64,000 bases of DNA from Girardia tigrina (Eukaryota): assembly GCA_001938485.1 (NCBI GenBank), contig MQRK01236006.1, forward strand, positions 17,797 through 81,796, in the 5' to 3' direction. Below the pieces are notes generated by a model. That model worked only from the letters and a program-made list of their open reading frames with translations. It was not told where the DNA came from and did no database searches. The position numbers and the translations under genes were made by a program. The first letter of the stretch is position 1. Each line of letters starts with the position of its first letter. Below are positions 6,313-51,585 of the stretch, piece by piece.

Positions 6313-6780
6313 CATTGTAAGGTAGAATCTATATAATAGGGATAAAAACAAGACGACGCGTTTCGAGATAATAATAATCCCATCATCAGGTCACAAAATG
6401 TACTAAGCAAGTACACTATATGGAAATTTGCTGGAAATAAATAAAATTAATCCAATAAATTATTGGATGAAAATAACTTTATTTCACTTTTCCTTAAAAT
6501 TAAGAAAAATGCACTAAATGCAATCAGTCTCATTCTCGCAAACCAACCATTGGCAGCTATCAATTGCCATTTGAGAAAACGATATGTTTTCTCTATCGTT
6601 CCGTACTTTACAAGGTAACGGAGACATATGATAAAGATGACAACTAACAGCACACCAAAAGCTAATCTTTGAGATGAAACTTCTCATACTCAATACAATC
6701 AACTCAATTTTAGCCTTCCCATCACACCCAAAACAATCCGTTACTTTGTAAACTACGGAACCTAAAATTGGTGAATATCA
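6313..6780 (-). mobile_element. Hammerhead-bearing repeat (PLE-like end or non-autonomous derivative), copy 1
   Basis: Colinear with 44729-45150 over ~400 bp; contains the hammerhead at 6352-6392; abuts (TA)n. Confidence 0.6.
6352..6392 (-). ncRNA. Minimal type I hammerhead ribozyme
   Basis: Reverse complement GAC-CTGATGA-T-GGGAT(TATTATT)ATCTC-GAAA-CGCG-TC-GTC: intact core, GUC cleavage triplet, palindromic ACGCGT stem III. Confidence 0.88.
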
Positions 6781-12100: not shown

Positions 12101-13130
12101 TAATAATTCCCTTTAGAAATACATCAGTGCCTCAAGCCTACATGCAGACACACCACATAACAGTGCCACAAGTTGAAAAAATGGACATATCGATTACATT
12201 GAACAGACATGAGCGATACATACATCTAGGGAATATATCACATACCCCTATTGATACTGACCCAGGTGGGGGGCCAATCGTCTATCCCATCTTGAACCGA
12301 ACCCGAAGGCCCTTCAAGCTCGGCACTGCCAGTCAGATGTCGAGTAAGAAGAGGCGTCCGACCCTATTACTGACGAATCTCCTGAAAGAATAAACAACTT
12401 CTTAAAATAACATTGGGTTGTGGTTGACCCTTAACAATCACTGGGGGCTCTTGAGCTATCATAAATGTTTGCACTCGAGAGGGTCATGGCAAAAGCTTGG
12501 TGCTTGGGTCCCACACGAACTCACCCAAAAACAGAAGGATAAGCGGCTTTCCATTGCTGCTCAAAATCTCGCTCAACACCAAGGAACCCATGACCACAGG
12601 CAACGTTTCTTATACAGAATCGTCACTGGAGACGAGAAATGGTGTCTCTATGTGAATATGAAGCAAAGGAAAGAGTGGGTGAGTCCTGGAGAGAAGCCTA
12701 AGCCCAGGATCAAGAAAGACCTGCAACCGATGAAGAAAATGATTTGCGTATGGTGGGATTGGGAAATGCTTGGAAAGAACATGACAGTAGAAAAACATCT
12801 CTATAAAGCCCAATGAGGCAATTCAACAAAAGACCATTCAACAAGGCCAGGTGATCCTCCGCCATGACAATGCTCGACCACACACCGCAAAAACCGTCAA
12901 GATGGCACTCCAAGAGCTCGGTTGGGAGGTCCTTCAACATCCTCCCTACTCCTCAGACCTCGCCCCGACGGATTACCCTCTCTTCCGCTGCCTTTCAGAT
13001 GAAATGAGGGGTCTTAGCTTCGAAAATCAGGATCATCTTGAGAATTGGCTCAACAACTTCTTCGAGACTCGACCTAAGGATTTCTGGCGAAATGGAATCA
13101 ACAAACTGGTGGAAAGATGAGAAGAAATGA
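9163..13130 (+). mobile_element. Mariner transposon pseudogene split by a 2.83-kb insertion
   Basis: Left TIR TA|TTGGGCTGTTGCATAAGTTCCCG; N-half 9333-9661 (HFRHLLFAFN, ARDWFSRFK, SGRP); C-half 12492-13120 (KLGAWVPHELT, TGDEKWCLY, HDNARPH, PPYSSDLAPTDY); right TIR not found. Confidence 0.92.
9662..12491. mobile_element. 2.83-kb TG...CA insertion with 4-bp TSD (large solo-LTR-like)
   Basis: TSD AAAG at 9658-9661 and 12492-12495; removing the insert and one TSD restores mariner ...FTQK|LGAWVPHEL; no gag, pol or transposase motifs inside. Confidence 0.8.
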
Positions 13131-13939
13131 ACAATCAATTGATAGCTAAAAGTTCAATTCCAAAAGTGCCAAAAATGACCCTCAAGGAATATATAGTTTT
13201 ACGTGCACCAAAAGTCTATTCAAATAACCTCAACAAGCTGCCGCTCAAATGGCAAGTGTGTTGATACTTTGATGAATGACATAAATATTTGTATTGGCGA
13301 ATTATCAATAAACATTGACTTTAGTTTCATAAAGTTCATACTTGACGACCTAATATTATACTGGAAAATAATAGAAATCACCCAAAAGAAGAATAGTTTA
13401 AAGAATAGTATATCTTAAATTTTATAAATATGCAAAATTCTATCTGTTATGAAAAATTAATTTAAGATTTAATATTAAAAACTACTTAAAAGTAACATAT
13501 AACGACTGAAAACTTATGTTATATACAATTATAAATAATAATTTAAAAACATGCAATCATATTATTATAAAAATAATTTTTAAGTGTGAAAATATTTCCC
13601 TAACGCGTGAAATTCAGCTCAGACATTTAATATTCAACTAAATATTAAATATTTAAATTTTCTATAACCGTTAAGTTGCTATTATCAAAAAATATAAATA
13701 AATTTATATTTAATCAATAGCGATAAATATTTATTATAATTTAATATTGAGAAAAATCTAAGCAGGTCATTCGGAGACAGCTCAATTTCCGGATTTCATT
13801 TGGTATAAAGAAAGCGAAATTTTAATAAAAAATAATTTAGATATATAATAGTTTTTAAATTTTATCGCGATTTTTTAAAGTAAAAATATTTTATAAAAAT
13901 TCTAAATTTTTTGGACATTATTTTTTGTATTTATTTCTA

Positions 13940-15316
13940 TTAGGTTGAGGAATAAGTTCCCTCCGTTTTTTGAATTTTTAATCAATTTTTAATCAATTTA
14001 ATATTTAAATCAAATTTTTTGATGTAATGTTATATGTTATTTGAAAGCTATTGTTTTGCTCTAAAAATTGGTGCATTTTGTTTTTTTATTCAGATTAATT
14101 TTTGTCGATTTTTAGACCATTGAAATGGAGAGTCAAGTCGACAAAAATGAGCATTTCCGACACCATCTATTGTATGCGTATAATCGAGGCGCCAAAGCCG
14201 CAGACGCTGCCCGAGAGTTTTGTGTTGTATACGGAGAAGGTACTATAGCCAATAGAACCGCTCGTGATTGGTTCTCAAAATTTAAAATTGGCAATTTTGA
14301 CCTCAAGGATGCACCTCGTTCAGGATTAAAAATAAAGAATGAATTCGATGAAGAGCGTTTGAACAAACTTTTGCATGAAGACGGGTGTCAAACCACTCGA
14401 GAATTGGCGGAACAAATGGATTGTGATCAAAAAACTGTGGTGAACCACCTGAAATCAATAGGAAAAGTTCAAAAAATGGGAGCATGGGTCCCACATCTTT
14501 TGACCGAAAACAACAAAAACCAGTGATCCACAATTTCGGCGAGTTTGTTTGCCCGTCATCGCTCTACTCACAGTCATAAGCAACAATTTCTTTATCAAAT
14601 TGTAACGGGTGATGAAAAATGGTGCCTGTACGTCAACATGAAACAGCGCAAAGAATGGCGTAGCCGAGAAAAACAATCGACACCGCGAGCAAAACAGGAT
14701 TTTCATCCACGAAAGACAATGCTATGCATTTGGTGGGGTTGGGAAGGGATTATTCATTATGAATTGCTTCCTCGAAACCAAACAGTGAACGCAGAACTTT
14801 ATGTTCAACAGCTGCATAGACTCAACGCCNNNNNNNNNNNNNNNNNNNNNNNNNNNNNNNNNNNNNNNNNNNNNNNNNNNNNNNNNNNNNNNNNNNNNNN
14901 NNNNNNNNNNNNNNNNNNNNNNNNNNNNNNNNNNNNNNNNNNNNNNNNNNNNNNNNNNNNNNNNNNNNNNNNNNNNNNNNNNNNNNNNNNNNNNNNNNNN
15001 NNNNNNNNNNNNNNNNNNNNNNNNNNNNNNNNNNNNNNNNNNNNNNNNNNNNNNNNNNNNNNNNNNNNNNNNNNNNNNNNNNNNNNNNNNNNNNNNNNNN
15101 NNNNNNNNNNNNNNNNNNNNNNNNNNNNNNNNNNNNNNNNNNNNNNNNNNNNNNNNNNNNNNNNNNNNNNNNNNNNNNNNNNNNNNNNNNNNNNNNNNNG
15201 AAGAAGTCGTGAACAATGGCGGAGATTATATTTGTGATTAATTTGTAGTAACTTTTTTGTTAAAAAATAAAATTTTAATTTTTCAATAAACGGCGGGAAC
15301 TTATTCCTCAACCCAA
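13940..15316 (+). mobile_element. Full-length mariner (D,D34D type), transposase 14125-15241 with premature stop; spans an N-gap
   Basis: TIRs TTAGGTTGAGGAATAAGTTCCC / GGGAACTTATTCCTCAACCCAA with TA TSDs; WVPHLL and TGDEKWCLY motifs; in-frame TGA at 14524-14526. Confidence 0.95.
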
Positions 15317-29228: not shown

Positions 29229-29369
29229 TGTAATTTCACCAGAAATAGAACACCACTAAACAACAAAAAAGTTTATTTAAGTACAACACAAAAAATCAAA
29301 TTCTGTTTTTACGTTTTTTATCACGTATTTAAACTAATTTTATTTCGAATATTTAACAGCATTATTATA
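29229..29369 (-). repeat. Putative 3' LTR (141 bp) of the Gypsy element
   Basis: On the minus strand it follows the purine run GGCGGGGA (PPT-like), begins TATAAT (eroded TGTAAT), ends ATTACA and contains AATAAA. Confidence 0.6.
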
Positions 29370-32300
29370 TCCCCGCCAAAAAGCAGGTATCCATTTCGAA
29401 ATCTCTGTGCCACGGTGGTTCTCTTCTCTCTCGATTGCTTCTGTGTTGCTCGTCACGATTTGTTTGGTCCATGATCTCTTCAACACTCGACTCCTCATTA
29501 ACTGCTTCGCTCTCGTCTTCAGGGCTTTCTAAATCATTAATCAACTTGTTTTCAGGATTATTCTGATCGTCAGATCGTTTTCTGATATCCTGAATATGTC
29601 TCGGAACTCCTTCTACTTCGTATTTGTTGTGATTAATTTTTGCTGTGATTATACTCCGACCCCATTGACTTGTACATCGAATATATTGACTCGGCTTGAC
29701 ATACACTTTCTCTCCTACTTCAAACATTCTACAGTCGTCACTCATCGGTTCCACGTTTATTTTTTCAACCATTATCCTCCAAATATAGTTAAATAATATA
29801 TCACTTGGCGATTTAATTCCATCTTTTCTTCTTTTAGGACCAATACACAGCTTCAGCTATAGCAATATTCTATCTCTTCGCTATTCTTTTTATCGTACGC
29901 TAACAGCGCTCCACAATACCGTTCGTACTGGGTATATGCGCACATCGATAGTCTATCTTAACACTCCATTTAATACACAAGGTTTGAATTTTTCACCTGT
30001 AAAAGCTCCTCCATTGTCGACATGGATTTCTGTGGGAGCTCCATGCTCTATAAATAATTCATCGAGAATTTTTATTACGTCGTCGGCTCCTTCAGTTTTT
30101 ACTTCTCTCCAAATAGAAAATCGACTGATAAATAAAAAATCAATTACTGATAAATATACTCTATTCTTGTAATGAGTATGATCTATAGCCAATCTTTCCC
30201 AACAATTTTCTACCGATAATGATCCCTTTGGTGTTTTTATAGGGGCGGGATCAATACTACTAACCCGTTGACAGTTTCGAACGACACTCTCCATAATCTT
30301 TTCGACACTTCAACACCTTCTTTTTCTGCTATCAGAGAGCTTTTCTCGATCCCAAAATGATGTCGCTCATGACTCTTTTTTGTCTCATTTTATTTTCTCT
30401 CCTGATGAACAATACAAAATTTCCTTTCTGTCCATTTTCTTGGTACTCTGGTTAAGACATCTGCCTTGTTTAGTTCAGAGCGAACTCAATCACACTCCCA
30501 ATCTACTTCGGACTCGTTTAAAATACTGTCTATCATAACCAAACGTCTCCTGCTCAATATCTCATCCATTCCAGTTACTTTTATTCATCTTTTTCTTGTT
30601 TTCAACGCTGCGAGCCAACCATGGACTACAAAGAATTTGTAATTATTAATACTTTCTTCACATTCCACATCAAAGCAAAGTTAATTCCTTTCATAATCGC
30701 TTAAGGCTCATCAATGCTTATATGTGCATAATCATTTTCTTGTCTTAACCAGCTTCCATATTCGATTACATGGTCTCCGATATGCAATATACAACCAATG
30801 GCAATAGAACTTGCATAGCACTATATCGTACATTTTCGGCTCATATCCACATTCCAACGACCTAGTACTGGATCTGAATTACTAGTACGATCCATTACCT
30901 CACGAATAAAATTAATAGACTCTTCATTCACCGGTTTATTCCATTGTAATCCATTACACTACCGTTTTATGTAGCTACATGCTACACGCAACCAATTTCC
31001 AATCTGGTAATGATCAATTAATTTTCCACAAATCGAATATACGCCTCTTTTAGTGATCTTATCTGGAACGTTCACAGGCAAGGGAGTACTCCTCGACCAG
31101 TTTAATACTCCATCACATTGCGACAATTGAAGACCTAGAACTCTCGCTCCGTTTAGTTCCTCTGGATCTTTACATTTTAAACCGTACTTCGATAAATGAT
31201 TCCGTACTTCTTCTACGCTCACTATGTCTTCATTTACAATGATATCGTCTACATAATGACGAATTCCACGGCGAACTTTTTTATCAATGGACATAACCTT
31301 TCCTAAAATCATGGATATTATTTTCGGAGCGGATACTAAAGCAAATCCTAATCTTGTAAGCTCGTAAAATTCACTATTAATTCGCACTTTCTGATACTTC
31401 CGGAAAGTTGAATCTACTACGATTTGTAAATAGGCATTTTTCAAGTCGATAATTTTGCAATTCTTTGGCATACTTCTCAACTCGCGAAGTTCGTCATCCA
31501 CTGATACTGCTTCTAATGTATGAGAACTAATAAACTGATTCAACTCTCGATAATACATGACAGGCCTTACTTTACCCTTTTTTCTTGTTTGACGGAAAGC
31601 AATGGTATAATTCTTTCTCCATCACTATTTGAACTTTTCTTTAACCAACCCTCACTAATCCAACCCTGTTGTACCTCATGAAAATTTATTCTGGTGTCTT
31701 TATCCATATGATAATTCGCTCTTTTATTTGACAACTGAGGCGTTATATCTGTCCATTTCCACTTCACTTCCCACTTCCTTGCAGTTAATTTTGCATTAAA
31801 ATCAATATCATTTATTTCGAGATTTGTCTATTTTGCACCGCTTTGATACAACATTTTATTCGAATATGAATCAATATTATTTCTTTCACTATTCGACTGT
31901 GTTGCACCGCTATGACACACCTCTTTACTATCAATTTTAATACCTCCTCCTTGCATTATTCCATCCATGCTAATAATAACATCTACATCTTTTACTAACT
32001 CACTCATAACTAAACCCTTTAATCTCAATATCACATTAGACTCTGACTCAATCTCTGTCTCACATTCTCCAAGCACAGCTACTTCATTTCCATCAACTGC
32101 TTTAACACACACATTAGACATAAGCATCTTCTCTCTACCTAACTCATATCTTACAATACTCACATCACTCCAACTATCAATAAGAGCATTAACTCACTTA
32201 CCGTTCTACTTCACCACCATCCACATAGGCACATTTCTCTGCGTACAAGAATAGGTGGTGTCAACTATTCTTGGTTTAAGTTTAAATGATTCTTCTTCTT

Positions 32301-32670
32301 ACATTCGTTCGCTTTATGACCCCCTCCTTCACAACCACAACATTTAAACGTATTACTTGATATACACTTCTTGGCTATATGCCCGGGCTTCCCACACGAA
32401 AAGCACTTCAGCATAAAGGTTTTTTGGCGCCTCCAATCCGCCTGATAGAGTTCATCATTCGGCTTTTGCGACATTTTATAAGAATCCCCCCGCCACGAGT
32501 GAATTCCATCGCCCCATGGTAAAGCTCTATAACTAGCACATATAGAAACTTTGCTTTTCATTCCGTTAATTATGATCCTGGCCTTTTCCACTAACTTATT
32601 TTGTGATATTTCGTCTAATTCTATTAATTTTTTCAATTTGAGTCGCACATCATCAGGTAAACCGCTTAAA
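29229..32670 (-). mobile_element. Ty3/Gypsy LTR retrotransposon, decayed and 5'-truncated (gag-PR-RT-RH-IN)
   Basis: Two CCHC knuckles (CFSCGKPGHIAKKC, CCGCEGGGHKANEC); protease ALIDS; RT IDLKNAYLQI, TRLGFALVSAPKI, YVDDII; integrase WERLAIDHTHY, VDNGGAF, FEVGEKVYVK; Gypsy domain order. Confidence 0.93.
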
Positions 32671-32679
32671 AAAACATTT

Positions 32680-32779
32680 AAATATTTGTTCATTAATTGG
32701 AAACTGCGATAATCAAAAATGCACAACCAAAAATAAGGGGGATCGTATACACGGGGATCTTATACACGGAAAAATACGG
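32680..32779. mobile_element. Terminal fragment of a pogo-like DNA transposon at the Gypsy 5' breakpoint
   Basis: ...TATACACGGGGATCTTATACACGGAAAAATACGG|TA, a TA|CCGTATTTTTCCG-type TIR with a subterminal repeat. Confidence 0.5.
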
Positions 32780-37051: not shown

Positions 37052-38170
37052 TTGGGTTGGCCAAAAAGTCATTGCGTTTTTTCCTAAAATATTTATTATC
37101 AAAAAATGACATGAATGCACAAATATCTTTTCACAATATACTGTCCATTATTTTCAATCACTTTCTTCCACCTTTCCGGTAGCTTCATTATTCCTGATTC
37201 ATAAAAACCTTTGCCTTTGTTAGCAAAAAAAGCCATCTAGGAACGATTTGATGTCATCATCAATAGCGAATGTTTTTCTGTTTAAGGAATTCTGCAGTGA
37301 TCTAAATAAGTGAAAATCCGATGGGGCCAAGTCTGGAGAATACCGTGGGTGCGGCAAAACCTCCGAACCCAGTGATAAGAGTTTCTGGCGAGTGGTTAAA
37401 CTTGTATGCGGTCTTACTTTATCATACAACTCCTTTTCTATTTGCCAATTCAGGACGTTTCTGTTTAATTGAATGAGCCAATTTCTCCAGCTGACCACAA
37501 TATCTGTCTGAATTGATGGTTTCATTCCTCGGAAGGAGTTCAAAAAGCACAATTCCTTTAAAATCCCACCAGACGGAAAGCATAACCTTCTTTTGGTGAA
37601 TTTCTGCTTTTGGGATCGTTTTGGCAAATTCACCACATTTTGTCCATGATCGTCGGCGTTCCACATTGTTGTAAACAATCCATTTTTCGTCACCCGTAAT
37701 CAAGCGCTTCAAAAATGGATCACTTTGTTCTCACTTCAAAAGGGAATCGTAAATGTCTATACGTTTCACCAAATGAATTTCTTTCAGTTCATGTGGTAAA
37801 CACATATCGAGTTAACTGACGAATCCAAGTTTCTTTAAATGATTTAGAAAACCAGTTTTGACACTGTCGAAGTTTTAAGGAGTCACTATCATATACAAAA
37901 CATATCATCTTGTGAGCTTGCACAGCGGTTTTTCCTTTGCGAAAATAATGCAACAAAACATGACGAATATGCTCATTTTGATTTTCCATTTCGAATTGAT
38001 GGTAAAGTAAAAAATTAAAAACAAAATCAATTAATATTTTGTATAAACATAGTCTGAAAATTAAGGTTTCAGAATATATAATTGAATTTAAATTTTATCA
38101 CATCGTTTTATATTTTCAAGCTTTTTATTAGGACATACTCAAAAGCGTAATGACGTTTTGGTCAACCCAA
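37052..38170 (-). mobile_element. Mariner transposon with internal deletion and frameshifts
   Basis: TIRs TTGGGTTGGCCAAAAAGTCATTGCG / CGTAATGACGTTTTGGTCAACCCAA with TA TSDs; MENQNEHIRHVLLHYF, ITGDEKWIVY, HPRYSPDLAPSDFHLF. Confidence 0.93.
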
Positions 38171-42427: not shown

Positions 42428-44638
42428 TTAGGTTGGTCGAAAAATAATGGCGGTTTTTGAGCTTTATACTTTGTTTATCTACTTTAATATGTATATAAGT
42501 TTAAATGCATTAGTGTTAGATATTATTTGAAATCTTTTACCTAGCTGTATATTCCTATAGCCATTATTAACATATTGCTGTTATTTATAGAATATTTACG
42601 GTGCTAAATTAATAATTGAAAAAATTAAAATTCGAGCAATTTTCTTGTACGAATTTAAACTTGGTCGTAAAGCAGCAGAAATGGCTCGCAATATCAATAA
42701 AGCGTTTGGCAAGGGAACAGCTTCTGAGCGCACAGTGCAACGATGGTTCCGAAAATTTTCTGATAGAGATGAAAACCTTGAAGATGAAGAAGGTCGTGGT
42801 CGTCCAGTTGCTGTGAACAACGACAATTTGAGGACAATGGTGCAAACAGATCCTTGTACAACAATCAGAGAACTTGCAGATGGGTTGGGCATTAGTCATT
42901 CAACAGTCCTAGATCATTTATATAAAAACACTAATTCAACAATAGAACTCGTATTACGTTGAATTAATTGTTTTTATATATTTGTCTGTTTAGTAAAAGG
43001 GTAAAAGTCCGGCAGCAATTAAACTAGGCTAACCAAAGTGCAGAGTTTGGTGAACCTAGTCGTATTTTATACAAAACTAAATAGTAAAAAAACCAAATAA
43101 TTTTTATCAAATACTTTTAATGTAACTAATTTAACAGTTAAATAGAAGTAGTATAAGTACCGTGGTGTAACTGAACAAAATAATTTCTGATTAATAGTTA
43201 GGATAATCGTAAGTATTTGTCAAACAAATATAGTGACGCAATAATCATCGGATAAATTCGTCACTAGGATAATTGTAAGTATTAGTTAGAACTAATATCG
43301 TCAAAAAATACAAATTCGTCACTGGGATAATTGTCCGTTAAAGATTATTCATGTCGTCAGGTAAAATATATTTCTGGCATTGATCTCAGTTTGAATTTTT
43401 AATTCAAACGAAAATCGATCAAAAATTATAATTTAGTTTAATTATAATTTAGTATTATAAATATAATTCCGTCATGTTTTCTTTTACTCTTTCTACTTCA
43501 TGTTTTCTTATCTTCTTTTTTTTAAATGGAAAACAGTGAACTTTTTTTCGGTGACATCTTTTTTTTCAAAATAAATATAGGGTAAGTATTTCCTTCCTAA
43601 AAAATGGTTAGTTTCTTCTTTTAGTCTGGTTTGAAAATTGTCAAAAAACATTGAAAAAATAATAAGAAAATAATCATTTAAAATTTGTACATCATTTCTC
43701 GACCACCAACATTGTGTCATAAATAAAAAATAACATAAAAAAATGAATAAAAAAAAGGACCATGTAGATCTTATCACAATGTAAAAAAACAAAAAAATGA
43801 CAAAAATCACACGTAATAACGACAAATAAAAATGTATACAACACTCGAACGTCATGCTGTACAACGGAAATATAAAAGTAAACATTACAAGAAAGGCTCA
43901 CATAACATTTAAAACAACTTGGAAAAATCAAGAAACTTGATAAATGAATTCCACATGATTTGAATGAAAATCAAAAGAACCGACGCTATGAAATTTGTTC
44001 TGCCAATCATCTTCGCAATAAAAACGATCCATTTCTTGATCGTATTGTTACCTGTGATGAGAAATGNNNNNNNNNNNNNNNNNNNNNNNNNNNNNNNNNN
44101 NNNNNNNNNNNNNNNNNNNNNNNNNNNNNNNNNNNNNNNNNNNNNNNNNNNNNNNNNNNNNNNNNNNNNNNNNNNNNNNNNNNNNNNNNNNNNNNNNNNN
44201 NNNNNNNNNNNNNNNNNNNNNNNNNNNNNNNNNNNNNNNNNNNNNNNNNNNNNNNNNNNNNNNNNNNNNNNNNNNNNNNNNNNNNNNNNNNNNNNNNNNN
44301 NNNNNNNNNNNNNNNNNNNNNNNNNNNNNNNNNNNNNNNNNNNNNNNNNNNNNNNNNNNNNNNNNNNNNNNNNNNNNNNNNNNNNNNNNNNNNNNNNNNN
44401 NNNNNNNNNNNNNNNNNNNNNNNNNNNNNNNNNNNNNNNNNNNNNNNNNNNNNNNNNNNNNNNNNNNNNNNNNNNNNNNNNNNNNNNNTGCTGATGGAAT
44501 AAAACAACTTGTTTCTCGTTGGCAAAAATGTATTGATGCCAACGGTTCATACTTTGATTAATAAACTTTTGTTTCTGTGAATTTGCACGTCTTTGATGTT
44601 TGTGTCCAAAAACCGCCATTATTTTTCGAACAACCTAA
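42428..44638 (+). mobile_element. Mariner (Hsmar1/cecropia-like TIR) split by a ~1-kb insertion; spans an N-gap
   Basis: TIRs TTAGGTTGGTCGAAAAATAATGGCGGTTTTTG at both ends with TA TSDs; YEFKLGRKAAE, TVQRWFRKF, IVTCDEK, RWQKCIDANGSYFD. Confidence 0.93.
42921..43907. mobile_element. Unclassified ~985-bp insertion within the mariner
   Basis: Flanking duplication (CA)TTTA; removal restores VLDHL|KQLGK; internal short tandem repeats (ATTCGTCACT.GGATAATTGT) at 43190-43340. Confidence 0.7.
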
Positions 44639-47785: not shown

Positions 47786-48933
47786 TGATGTAATGTTATA
47801 TGTTATTTGAAAGCTATTGTTTTGTCAAGTCGACAAAAATGAGCATTTCCGACACCATCTATTGTTTGCGTATAATCGAGGCGCCAAAGCCGCAGACGCT
47901 GTCCGAGAGCTTTGTGCTGTATACGGAGAAGGTGCTATAGCTGATAGAACCGCTCGTGATTTGTTCGCAAAATTTAAAATTGGCAATTTTGATCTCAAGG
48001 ATGCACCTCGTTCAGGACGAACAAATGAATTCGATGAACAGCGTTTGAACAAACTTTTGCATGAAGACGCGTGTCAAACCACTCGAGAATTGGCGGAACA
48101 AATGTATTGTGATCAAAAAACTGTCGTGAACCACCTGAAATCAATGGGAAAAGTTCAAAAAGTGGGAACTTGGGTCCCACATATTTTGACCGAAAACAAC
48201 AAAAACCAGTGATCCACAATTTCGGCGAGTTTGCTTGCCCGTCATCGCTCTACTCACAGTCATAAGCAACAATTTCTTTATCGAATTCTAACGGGTGATG
48301 AAAAATGGTGCCTGTACGTCAACATGAAAAAGCGCAAAGAATGGCGTAGCCGAGAAAAACAATCGATACCGCGAGCAAAACAGGATCTCCATCCACGAAA
48401 GACAATGTTATGCATTTGGTGGGGTTGGAAAGGGTTTATTCATTATGAATTGCTTCCTCGAAACCAAACAGTGAACGCAGAACTTTATGTTCAACAGCTG
48501 CATAGACTCAACGTCGCTATAAGACAAAAACATCTGGATGGACAACATGGCGTTATTTTGCAACACTACAATGCACGTCCTTATATTGCCAGAATGACAA
48601 AAGAAGCCATTAAAACGCTTGGTTGGGAAGTGTTACCGCACCCTCCGTATTCACCTGACTTGGCTCCATCTGATTTTCATCTTTTCCGTTCGCTTTCTAA
48701 CGCTTTGCGATAAACATAACAATAATGGAGAACTGCAAGTTTGGTTGACTGAATTCTTCGAGTCAAGACCGGGCGATTTCTACAAAAGAGGCATTGAAAA
48801 ACTTGTTGAACGTTGGGAAGAAGTCGTGAACAATGGCGGAGATTATATTTGTGATTAATTTGTAGTAACTTTTTGGTTAAAAAATAAAATTTTAATTTTT
48901 CAAAAAACGGAGGGAACTTATTTCTCAACCCAA
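47786..48933 (+). mobile_element. Mariner, same family as 13940-15316; left TIR and start codon deleted
   Basis: Highly similar to 14020-15316; TGDEKW, HYNARPY, HPPYSPDLAPSDFHLF; right TIR GGGAACTTATTTCTCAACCCAA|TA; same TGA after NKNQ. Confidence 0.93.
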
Positions 48934-49759
48934 TATATAATTACACAAATAACTGATTATATATTGTCACAAAAACGTTGAAAAAAACAGTATTTAATTT
49001 TTGATCTTTCATATTTTCAGTTGACGAAAGTGAAGAACCATTTATTGGAATGGAAGACACGTTTATTTTTAGGGTTTCTTTCTCAGAAATATATCCTGAA
49101 AAAATTATTTAAATATACATTTAAATCAAACCATAATCAGAAATTGTTGGACTTTATATAGACATAATAAACATAAACTTGTATTTGGAGTCTTTGATAA
49201 TAGCTCCTAAAATCTCATAAAAAATTCCTCATCGATTGGTAAATTTTTTGCTTATAAGTTGATTTAAATTTTCTGATGTAATTCCTTATTAAATCTTTAA
49301 GCTTCCTCTTCAATAAAAGAATTAAATAATTAATTAATGTATTGTTTTTTTATACAGATTCATCATTTCGTTTCTTAAAACACATAATAACGCATATCTT
49401 TAGTTAAAGAAAAATTATTTTCGTTTGAAAAGAAAAACATTGAAGTAAAACTTTAACAATATCAGAAAAATTTTAATTGAATCTAAATTTACATTTTAAT
49501 AATAACAAAAATTTTCATTTTGAACAAGATGACACAATTTTTTATAAAAGAAATCGGCCAAGTATTTCGAAGGAAGATTCAAAGACATTTTTTCAGCATA
49601 ATGGTTCTAGGTGCTTTGACTACAGGTGCTTTGACCAAAGCACCATAGGGGGTTTGTCCACAGCGGGGGTTTGACCACAGGTGGTTTGAACATAGGTGGT
49701 TTGTCCACAGCTTTTAATATTTTCAAAATATAATTTGATTAAAGCTTCTTTAATATATT

Positions 49760-49803
49760 TATTGGACATGTTTCGATGATTACATACATCATCATTAGCA
49801 ATA
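49760..49803 (-). ncRNA. Minimal hammerhead ribozyme with a G5A core lesion
   Basis: Reverse complement TATTG-CTAATGA-T-GATG(TATGTAAT)CATC-GAAA-CATG-TC-CAATA. Confidence 0.65.
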
Positions 49804-50352
49804 TTTTGAAATTTATCATTTTAATATTTGTATATGATTTTGGCTTGTGTGGGCTAGAATCTAATATTTTAGTTTTTATTAATAATATGATTTTAAAATG
49901 TACATTAAGTTTAAATAGAATATTTTTTTAATATATTTTATTTTATTAAAGTATTATTGGGTAATAATGGCAAAAATATTTTAATTAAAAATTTTAAGTA
50001 TTGAAATNNNNNNNNNNNNNNNNNNNNNNNNNNNNNNNNNNNNNNNNNNNNNNNNNNAAGTATTATTGGGTAATAATGGCAAAAATATTTTAATTAAAAA
50101 TTTTAAGTATTGAAATGACTTTAATGGACAAAGTAAAGTTATTTCAATACTTAAAATTTTTAATTAAAATATTTTTGTCATTATTACCCAATAATACTTT
50201 AATAAAATAAAATATATTAAAAAAATATTCTATTTAAACTTAATGTACATTTTAAAATCATATTATTAATAACAACTAAAATATTATATTCTAGCCCACA
50301 CAAGCCAAAATCATGGAAAACTATACAAATATTAAAATGATAAATTTCCAAA

Positions 50353-50396
50353 TATTTCTGATGATGATGTATGTAATCATCGAAACATGTCCAATA
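50353..50396 (+). ncRNA. Minimal hammerhead ribozyme
   Basis: TATTT-CTGATGA-T-GATG(TATGTAAT)CATC-GAAA-CATG-TC-CAATA; intact core, GUC triplet, mismatch at the first stem I pair. Confidence 0.78.
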
Positions 50397-50614
50397 AATA
50401 TATAAAAGAAGCTTTAATCAAATTATATTTTAAAAATATTAAAAGATGTGGTCAAACCACATATGGTCAAACCCCCTATGGTCAAACCCACGCTGTGGAC
50501 AAACCCCCTATGGTCAAAGCACCTGTGGTCAAAACACCGCGTACCAGCATAATAGTAAAACAGTAATACTATCAACAACATCAGTACGATTTTTCGAACA
50601 TTTATTAATATCAA

Positions 50615-51354: not shown

Positions 51355-51585
51355 TAGGGCAACCAAAATTATGCGCATATTTTCAAGTGAAATGTGCACA
51401 ATGTTTTGCAAAAATATGCATTTTATACGAAATATACAAAATAATATACAAAAATACGCAAAGACTAATTTAATGTAAACATATTGCCCTTTTATTACTA
51501 ACAAGATATTTATTTATGTATGCAAAATATGCATATTTTGACCAAAAAACAGAAAATAAGCAAAATATGCATTTTGGGTGCCCTA
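51355..51585. mobile_element. hAT-type MITE
   Basis: TAGGGCAACCAAAAT / ATTTTGGGTGCCCTA TIRs; 8-bp TSD ATGATCAA/ATGATCAG. Confidence 0.7.

Follow-up and report, generated by a model that had tools for sequence, protein, structure and literature searches.

A Phantom-like transposon copy in Girardia tigrina with a captured Penelope end and a hammerhead motif on each strand

How does a short transposon-like unit come to be a palindrome with a hammerhead motif on each strand? The question is raised by a unit at 49603–50545 of the 64,000-nt stretch of Girardia tigrina DNA analysed here (the window), which the initial annotation had read as a Merlin-type miniature element (MITE) that may have formed by fold-back. 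We find that it is a non-coding copy of a Mutator-type, Phantom-like DNA transposon with a captured Penelope end.

The exact 8-bp target-site duplication (TSD) and the GG...CC ends with subrepeats of about 15 bp were confirmed (Table 1). Symmetry had been described as unbroken from the terminal inverted repeats (TIRs) to a central loop, and the two arms are indeed 92% alike over 406 nt, from the ends to the 10-nt loop; the termini, however, are the family's distinct left and right ends and not mirror copies. The palindrome is real, but its estimated length of about 0.9 kb needs correction. Identical 59-nt stretches flank the 50-N gap, and in a set of 30 distinct gaps of this kind 11 showed exact, non-simple overlaps, so a length of 943 − 109 = 834 bp is probable. 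The interior, held to be wholly Penelope-derived, does consist of arms from a Penelope 3′ end, but each arm also holds an approximately 45-bp piece from around the start codon of the element's transposase.

The central gap with its duplicated overlap, together with the lack of long-read support, invites the suspicion that the assembly linked two contigs from different copies, or a mirrored arm, across the gap. We consider such an artefact very unlikely, because the exact TSD spans both flanks, the termini are of the proper left and right types, and the arms have private changes (4 substitutions in one, 5 in the other, and a deletion of 8 bp), yet have in common a change found in no other compared copy. 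The earlier argument that arm differences speak against an assembly mirror is supported. Short assembled contigs, compared with the left half of the element at a minimum reach of 31 letters, entered it at the left junction by only 30 and 25 letters; both junction contigs fell short of that minimum, and none spans the element.

Table 1 Features of the unit at 49603–50545 (window coordinates)
Feature	Position	Strand	Remark
Left TSD copy, 8 bp	49595–49602	.	Identical to 50546–50553
Left TIR: family left terminus and array of about 15-bp subrepeats	49603–49711	+	Other copies start with the same terminus
Left arm: the family's right subterminal arm in inverted copy, with Penelope 3′ end and transposase-start piece	49712–50007	-	Private 8-bp deletion
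Left minimal hammerhead motif, G5A at 49796, helix I intact	49760–49803	-	
50-N scaffold gap flanked by identical 59-nt stretches; probably an overlap of contigs with no DNA missing	50008–50057	.	
Left arm, inner end	50058–50123	-	50058–50116 repeats 49949–50007
Central loop, 10 nt	50124–50133	.	Last Penelope ORF codons, where the captured piece is truncated at its 5′ end
Right arm: Penelope-like (RT/GIY-YIG) 3′ end, comprising the close of the ORF, the 3′ UTR, the hammerhead and some of the tail; points outward	50134–50445	+	
Piece of about 45 bp surrounding the start codon of the transposase (ATG at 50313); limits approximate	50277–50320	+	Precedes transposase in long copies
Right minimal hammerhead motif, intact core 50358–50391, helix I closing pair broken at 50357	50353–50396	+	
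Right TIR: subrepeat array and family right terminus	50446–50545	+	
Right TSD copy, 8 bp	50546–50553	.	Identical to 49595–49602

The two hammerhead motifs, compared here with the minimal type I hammerhead, lie on opposite strands and both point outward. As first noted, their lesions differ: the left motif has the G5A change and forms helix I, as does one family copy, whereas the right motif has all core letters and a mismatch beside the core that leaves helix I unformed. A G5A change inactivates the hammerhead, and from their sequences both ribozymes of this copy are probably inactive. The intact-core pattern matched twice in the window (at 50358 and, unrelated, at 6355), whereas 100 shuffles gave 0.00 matches on average. 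An Rfam scan at E ≤ 1 detected neither motif as a hammerhead, and folding z-scores were unremarkable (−0.26 to −0.76); the call is based on pattern, fold and homology to the donor described below.

The unrelated site, at 6355–6389 (minus strand), is a further minimal hammerhead motif; its helices differ, and it probably marks the end of another Penelope family. Other elements surround the unit. A 231-bp element at 51355–51585, with 15-bp TIRs and an 8-bp TSD with one mismatch, is one that we take to be a hAT-like MITE. From their motifs, copies at 12406–15259, 37220–37699, 42591–42962, 43948–44561 and 47811–48935 are presumably decayed mariner-like transposases, and the broken ORFs at 29365–32759 (minus strand), in a region of strong negative GC skew, are presumably LTR-retrotransposon-like (zinc knuckle, protease, RT and integrase end, again by motifs).

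To which family does the unit belong? In long copies that share these ends, FLYWCH (E = 2e-10) and MULE (E = 3e-9 to 8e-7) domains score above Pfam cut-offs. PF10551 (MULE) exceeded its cut-off in three of four ORFs from long copies and the fourth ORF is the FLYWCH part; in one copy (L084) FLYWCH residues 13–74 are followed by MULE in the overlapping next frame. No IS1595 domain (DDE_Tnp_IS1595) was matched in any of these four ORFs at E ≤ 0.01. The proposed Merlin identity has in its favour the GG...CC ends, the TSD of 8–9 bp and the internal tandem repeats (excerpts of PMC8101967). It is nonetheless almost certainly wrong: Merlin is defined by the IS1595 domain in the same excerpts, and the 5′-GG termini and 8–9-bp TSD found here are not diagnostic, given that Phantom TSDs are put at 8–10 bp (PMC6446971, group 20, in the part consulted). 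TSDs of 8 or 9 bp with at most one mismatch flank 26 of the 27 two-ended copies (8 bp exact in 20, 9 bp in three, 8 bp with one mismatch in three, none in one), within the 8–11-bp range of Mutator/MULE elements, and the TIRs are built of variable short tandem repeats, as in Phantom (FLYWCH-MULE, foldback-type TIRs). We use 'Phantom-like' as the safe name; it rests on domain layout, and FLYWCH also occurs in other MULE groups according to sections of PMC6446971.

The family may no longer be active, as its best transposase matches have open frames all under about 400 amino acids. The right half of the element gave 3,003 first-look candidates in its own genome, of which 40 were scored; many of the 3,003 may be free Penelope ends. 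The script used for finding ends missed two-ended copies that were seen by eye (L002, L015, L017, L022 and L008), none of them a full palindrome. At least three sister FLYWCH-MULE families (L214–L217, L220–L225) have subrepeat TIRs of their own, and some have open frames of 450–500 amino acids.

The description of the unit as a chimera of a DNA transposon and a Penelope element also held, since the arm matches the 3′ terminus of a Penelope-like family (RT/GIY-YIG) that occurs in this genome. In free copies the core lies downstream of an ORF with RT (RVT_1, E = 7e-10), and these copies end in a short tail and (TA)n; the donor's C-terminal GIY-YIG match in Pfam is weak (E = 0.015, below cut-off). 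The end of the donor ORF runs on into arm sequence, and the arm tracks the donor 3′ UTR through the hammerhead to just short of the tail, a motif that alone has 439 matches. The exact 34-nt hammerhead core has 156 matches in the genome. Among 48 loci read around exact cores, five are free Penelope-type (L118, L120, L133, L134 and L144) and nearly all others Phantom-type. The two kinds differ at the fifth pair of helix II, which is U-U in 48 of 51 Phantom-type motifs and U-A or U-G in 17 of 18 free Penelope motifs. Exact-core pairs 150 bp apart (C184230, C190380), considered as tandem Penelope repeats, are gap-duplicated overlaps.

Coding copies run, in order, from the right end through the subrepeats, the outward Penelope end, the loop and a mirror arm reaching to about position 192, to the transposase, left-unique DNA, (AT)n, the left subrepeats and the left end; relative to the transposase, the hammerhead is antisense. 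The stretch of roughly 510 bp that separates the start codon from the right subrepeats is nearly all Penelope DNA. Of 30 loci, several of them near-duplicates, 28 have such DNA upstream of the transposase; in the remaining two a contig end or gap interrupts the sequence. In sister families (41–51% protein identity) a Penelope arm was found at none of ten loci, two of which have gaps upstream; two further loci of this comparison are decayed members of the family itself. The arm's occurrence in transposase-coding copies and in none of the sister families suggests that the Penelope end was captured once, in the family founder. The copy search proposed at the outset also recovered many copies with the same junction between TIR and Penelope DNA and different TSDs. 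Chimeras of this kind may exist in related organisms: in a public run with another organism label (X3), contigs on window positions 49663–49742 join the family termini and subrepeats to the Penelope-derived arm.

The normal form of the family is not the palindrome. It is lopsided: it has one hammerhead, and its mirror ends where the transposase starts, at about 192 bp. In 27 copies the mirror measures under 175 bp in nine, about 192 in nine, about 246 in six and is full in three. The 246 form has one fixed junction, with 21 exact matches on 21 contigs, and is an amplified palindromic MITE subfamily whose mirror has only half a hammerhead. In another copy (L016) the mirror reaches 274 and the far end is absent. 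The orientation of the central loop varies among copies, and as arm recombination or assembler choice may account for this, it was excluded as evidence.

Besides the unit, two copies have full mirrors. Only the left arm remains of the first (L093, contig C120163), which has a different 8-bp TSD, the same layout of left end plus right arm, and two derived alleles in common with the unit's left arm. The second (L090; G000:C234164, 950–2272) is a 1.3-kb palindrome with a 9-bp TSD, and its mirror continues beyond the right end to take in about 300 bp of the copy's own flank; it is the best evidence for fold-back in place. The captured flank includes another Penelope-type hammerhead motif.

Several further loci have unusual structures. 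One candidate palindrome (L138, contig C173814) was rejected, as its two outward arms are separated by 1.5 kb of mixed interior that includes transposase pieces. In L011/L092 and L002 a right arm carries terminal bases of left or hybrid type, by terminal conversion or interior inversion. Further insertions lie inside the family copies L029 and L023; one of these has inverted ends and sits at a TTAA site.

Is an inverted pair of Penelope ends in itself surprising? The initial annotation held that a random insertion would not be expected to land so symmetrically. This argument is not supported, because inverted 5′-truncated copies and opposite-strand hammerhead pairs are known for Penelope-like elements (excerpts of PMC8557442 and PMC4209133) and occur free in this genome: at around 2050–2260 of L144 we observed a free head-to-head Penelope pair with a hammerhead motif per strand and without DNA-transposon ends.

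Such pairs allow an opposite order of events, in which a head-to-head Penelope pair inserted into a small Phantom MITE, the full palindrome is ancestral and lopsided copies arose later. Inverted truncated pairs are typical of Penelope insertions (PMC8557442, in the passages seen), and L144 is a free pair of this kind. This order is largely refuted and in our view most improbable. The transposase-start piece is present in both arms of the unit, whereas the approximately 45-bp sequence was found in none of 30 free Penelope ends; the arms have in common derived changes that the family majority lacks; and transposase-coding copies already carry the arm.

We instead favour, with reasonable confidence, a derivation of the unit from a Phantom-like non-coding copy with the Penelope 3′ end and hammerhead beside its right end, in which, through a template switch, the left end would have received a copy of the right arm and the transposase gene would have been lost. 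In a first step, a 5′-truncated Penelope end would have inserted between the founder's right subrepeats and the transposase start, as an inverted pair or soon becoming one. The resulting built-in hairpin would then promote fold-back synthesis during gap repair or replication and so lengthen the mirror. Extension would halt on re-annealing: at a microhomology in the 246 subfamily, at the left subrepeats in the unit studied here, and past the element end in L090. Finally, copies with both ends would be mobilised in trans by the family transposase.

The unit's two arms have two derived changes in common, one of them present in no other copy among the 67 arms compared, which indicates that the arms were copied from each other; they have since diverged by the private changes described above. 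Some observations run against this proposal. The allele at 50340, common to both arms, recurs in three unrelated copies and is no clean lineage marker; L093 is without the 50245 change common to the unit's arms, which requires a later conversion; the order of events hangs on few substitutions; and interior inversion or terminal-base conversion can likewise give a right arm a left terminus, as in L011/L092.

The initial annotation further proposed that the palindrome, once folded back, spread as a MITE. Formation by fold-back is supported, but the palindrome with two ribozymes appears to be a rare derivative and not the unit that spread. It may be objected that a mobile two-hammerhead subfamily is hidden by short-read assembly, in which long palindromes break or collapse. 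Many arms do stop at contig ends or gaps near the loop, and L093, with its different TSD, same layout and two left-arm derived alleles, indicates that this form or its parent moved at least once. We nevertheless consider such a subfamily unlikely: the left-arm deletion junction has a single match in the genome, the left arm's 28-nt allele occurs at three places, one of them a free Penelope copy, and the 246 junction, likewise part of a long palindrome, was assembled 21 times. With one junction match and one deleted relative, the two-hammerhead form is not amplified as far as a short-read assembly, which may hide more, can tell.

Are the ribozymes maintained? All 12 core letters are kept in 47 of 67 arms. 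Across these letters, 26 of 799 positions were off the majority, compared with a base-matched mean of 0.038, and 46% of random site sets were as low. Selection on the core was looked for in three sets of arms (27 transposase-selected, 47 similarity-selected and 67 pooled) and was detected in none of them; the test covers inserted copies and is blind to selection in a master lineage. Judged by these alignments, core variation is what neutral decay would give. Minimal Penelope hammerheads are thought to act as dimers and cleave poorly in vitro (excerpts of PMC4209133). As the unit's motifs lie on opposite strands, one transcript would hold one ribozyme and its own antisense, so the two would be unable to supply each other as a dimer within it, and in read-through RNA the motif would be enclosed within an approximately 400-bp hairpin. 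On opposite strands and with a lesion in each, the hammerheads may be passengers.

Long double-stranded RNA from the locus, part of the earlier proposal, is plausible if the locus is transcribed. Arm words occurred in 20 of 24 public-run rows, none of which are raw RNA reads; the same words are common to the free Penelope family, and contigs of this kind cannot reveal expression or cleavage ends. Promoter capture is possible, because the Penelope terminal repeat contains a promoter in Penelope itself (as described in parts of PMC8557442). Transposase could alternatively come from read-through or from a sister family. A more far-reaching reading combines several claims: the terminal repeat took the place of the founder's promoter region, where it drove or tuned expression of the transposase, the outward antisense hammerhead was kept while a sense one was excluded from coding copies, and the hairpin self-silences the family and keeps spawning palindromic MITEs. 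Taken jointly, we regard these claims as speculative and rather doubtful.

Several known systems resemble parts of this family. In Tm1 of root-knot nematodes, Phantom elements encode a transposase with N-terminal FLYWCH and MULE, and one Tm1 class has a borrowed RNA motif, a histone hairpin (PMC3169594, in the sections seen). Like Phantom/Tm1, the present family combines FLYWCH and MULE with TIRs of variable numbers of 13–15-bp repeats, differing outermost motifs, TSDs of 8–10 bp and mostly non-autonomous copies (excerpts of PMC3169594 and PMC6446971); unlike in Phantom, the region upstream of the transposase is here almost wholly an inverted-duplicate Penelope 3′ end with a hammerhead motif. 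Galileo, a foldback element of Drosophila willistoni, likewise extends its TIRs from internal DNA, has a transposable element that inserted in one TIR and was transferred to the other, and includes copies of two TIRs only; it belongs to the P superfamily, with 7–8-bp TSDs, and the portion of PMC4168063 consulted mentions no ribozyme. With Penelope-like ends the unit has in common the plan of a minimal core (intact in the right motif), a short palindromic helix III and a 5-bp helix I (formed in the left motif), opposite-strand pairs 100–700 bp apart and inverted 5′-truncated copies (parts of PMC4209133 and PMC8557442), but its pair is framed by DNA-transposon ends and TSDs, is without the Penelope tail and has U-U for the donor's fifth helix II pair. 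Merlin resembles the unit in its GG termini, 8–9-bp TSD and internal tandem repeats but requires an IS1595-type DDE domain (PMC8101967, in part), in place of the MULE domain found here. Pack-TIR and Pack-MULE elements also carry foreign DNA between TIRs and arise by microhomology-guided template switching followed by transposition (excerpts of PMC8277862); here, by contrast, the cargo is a retroelement end that probably inserted itself, and the switch template would be the element's own arm. Portions of PMC6155905 and PMC6431247 provide further comparison literature.

Known processes explain the unit. What seems new is their combination, with Penelope DNA replacing nearly all of the region upstream of the transposase; we found no hammerhead-bearing DNA transposon family among papers of an open-access library. 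The single copy is a by-product. The family as a whole is a clear natural series of long-TIR gain in foldback transposons: a foreign insertion, a built-in hairpin, a stepwise mirror (192, 246, 274, full and past the end) and the amplification of one step. Hammerhead counts in such genomes include many motifs spread by DNA transposons, most sampled exact-core loci being Phantom-type. If the Penelope DNA does supply the transposase promoter, the family would illustrate how one class of transposon can borrow its regulatory DNA from a different class.
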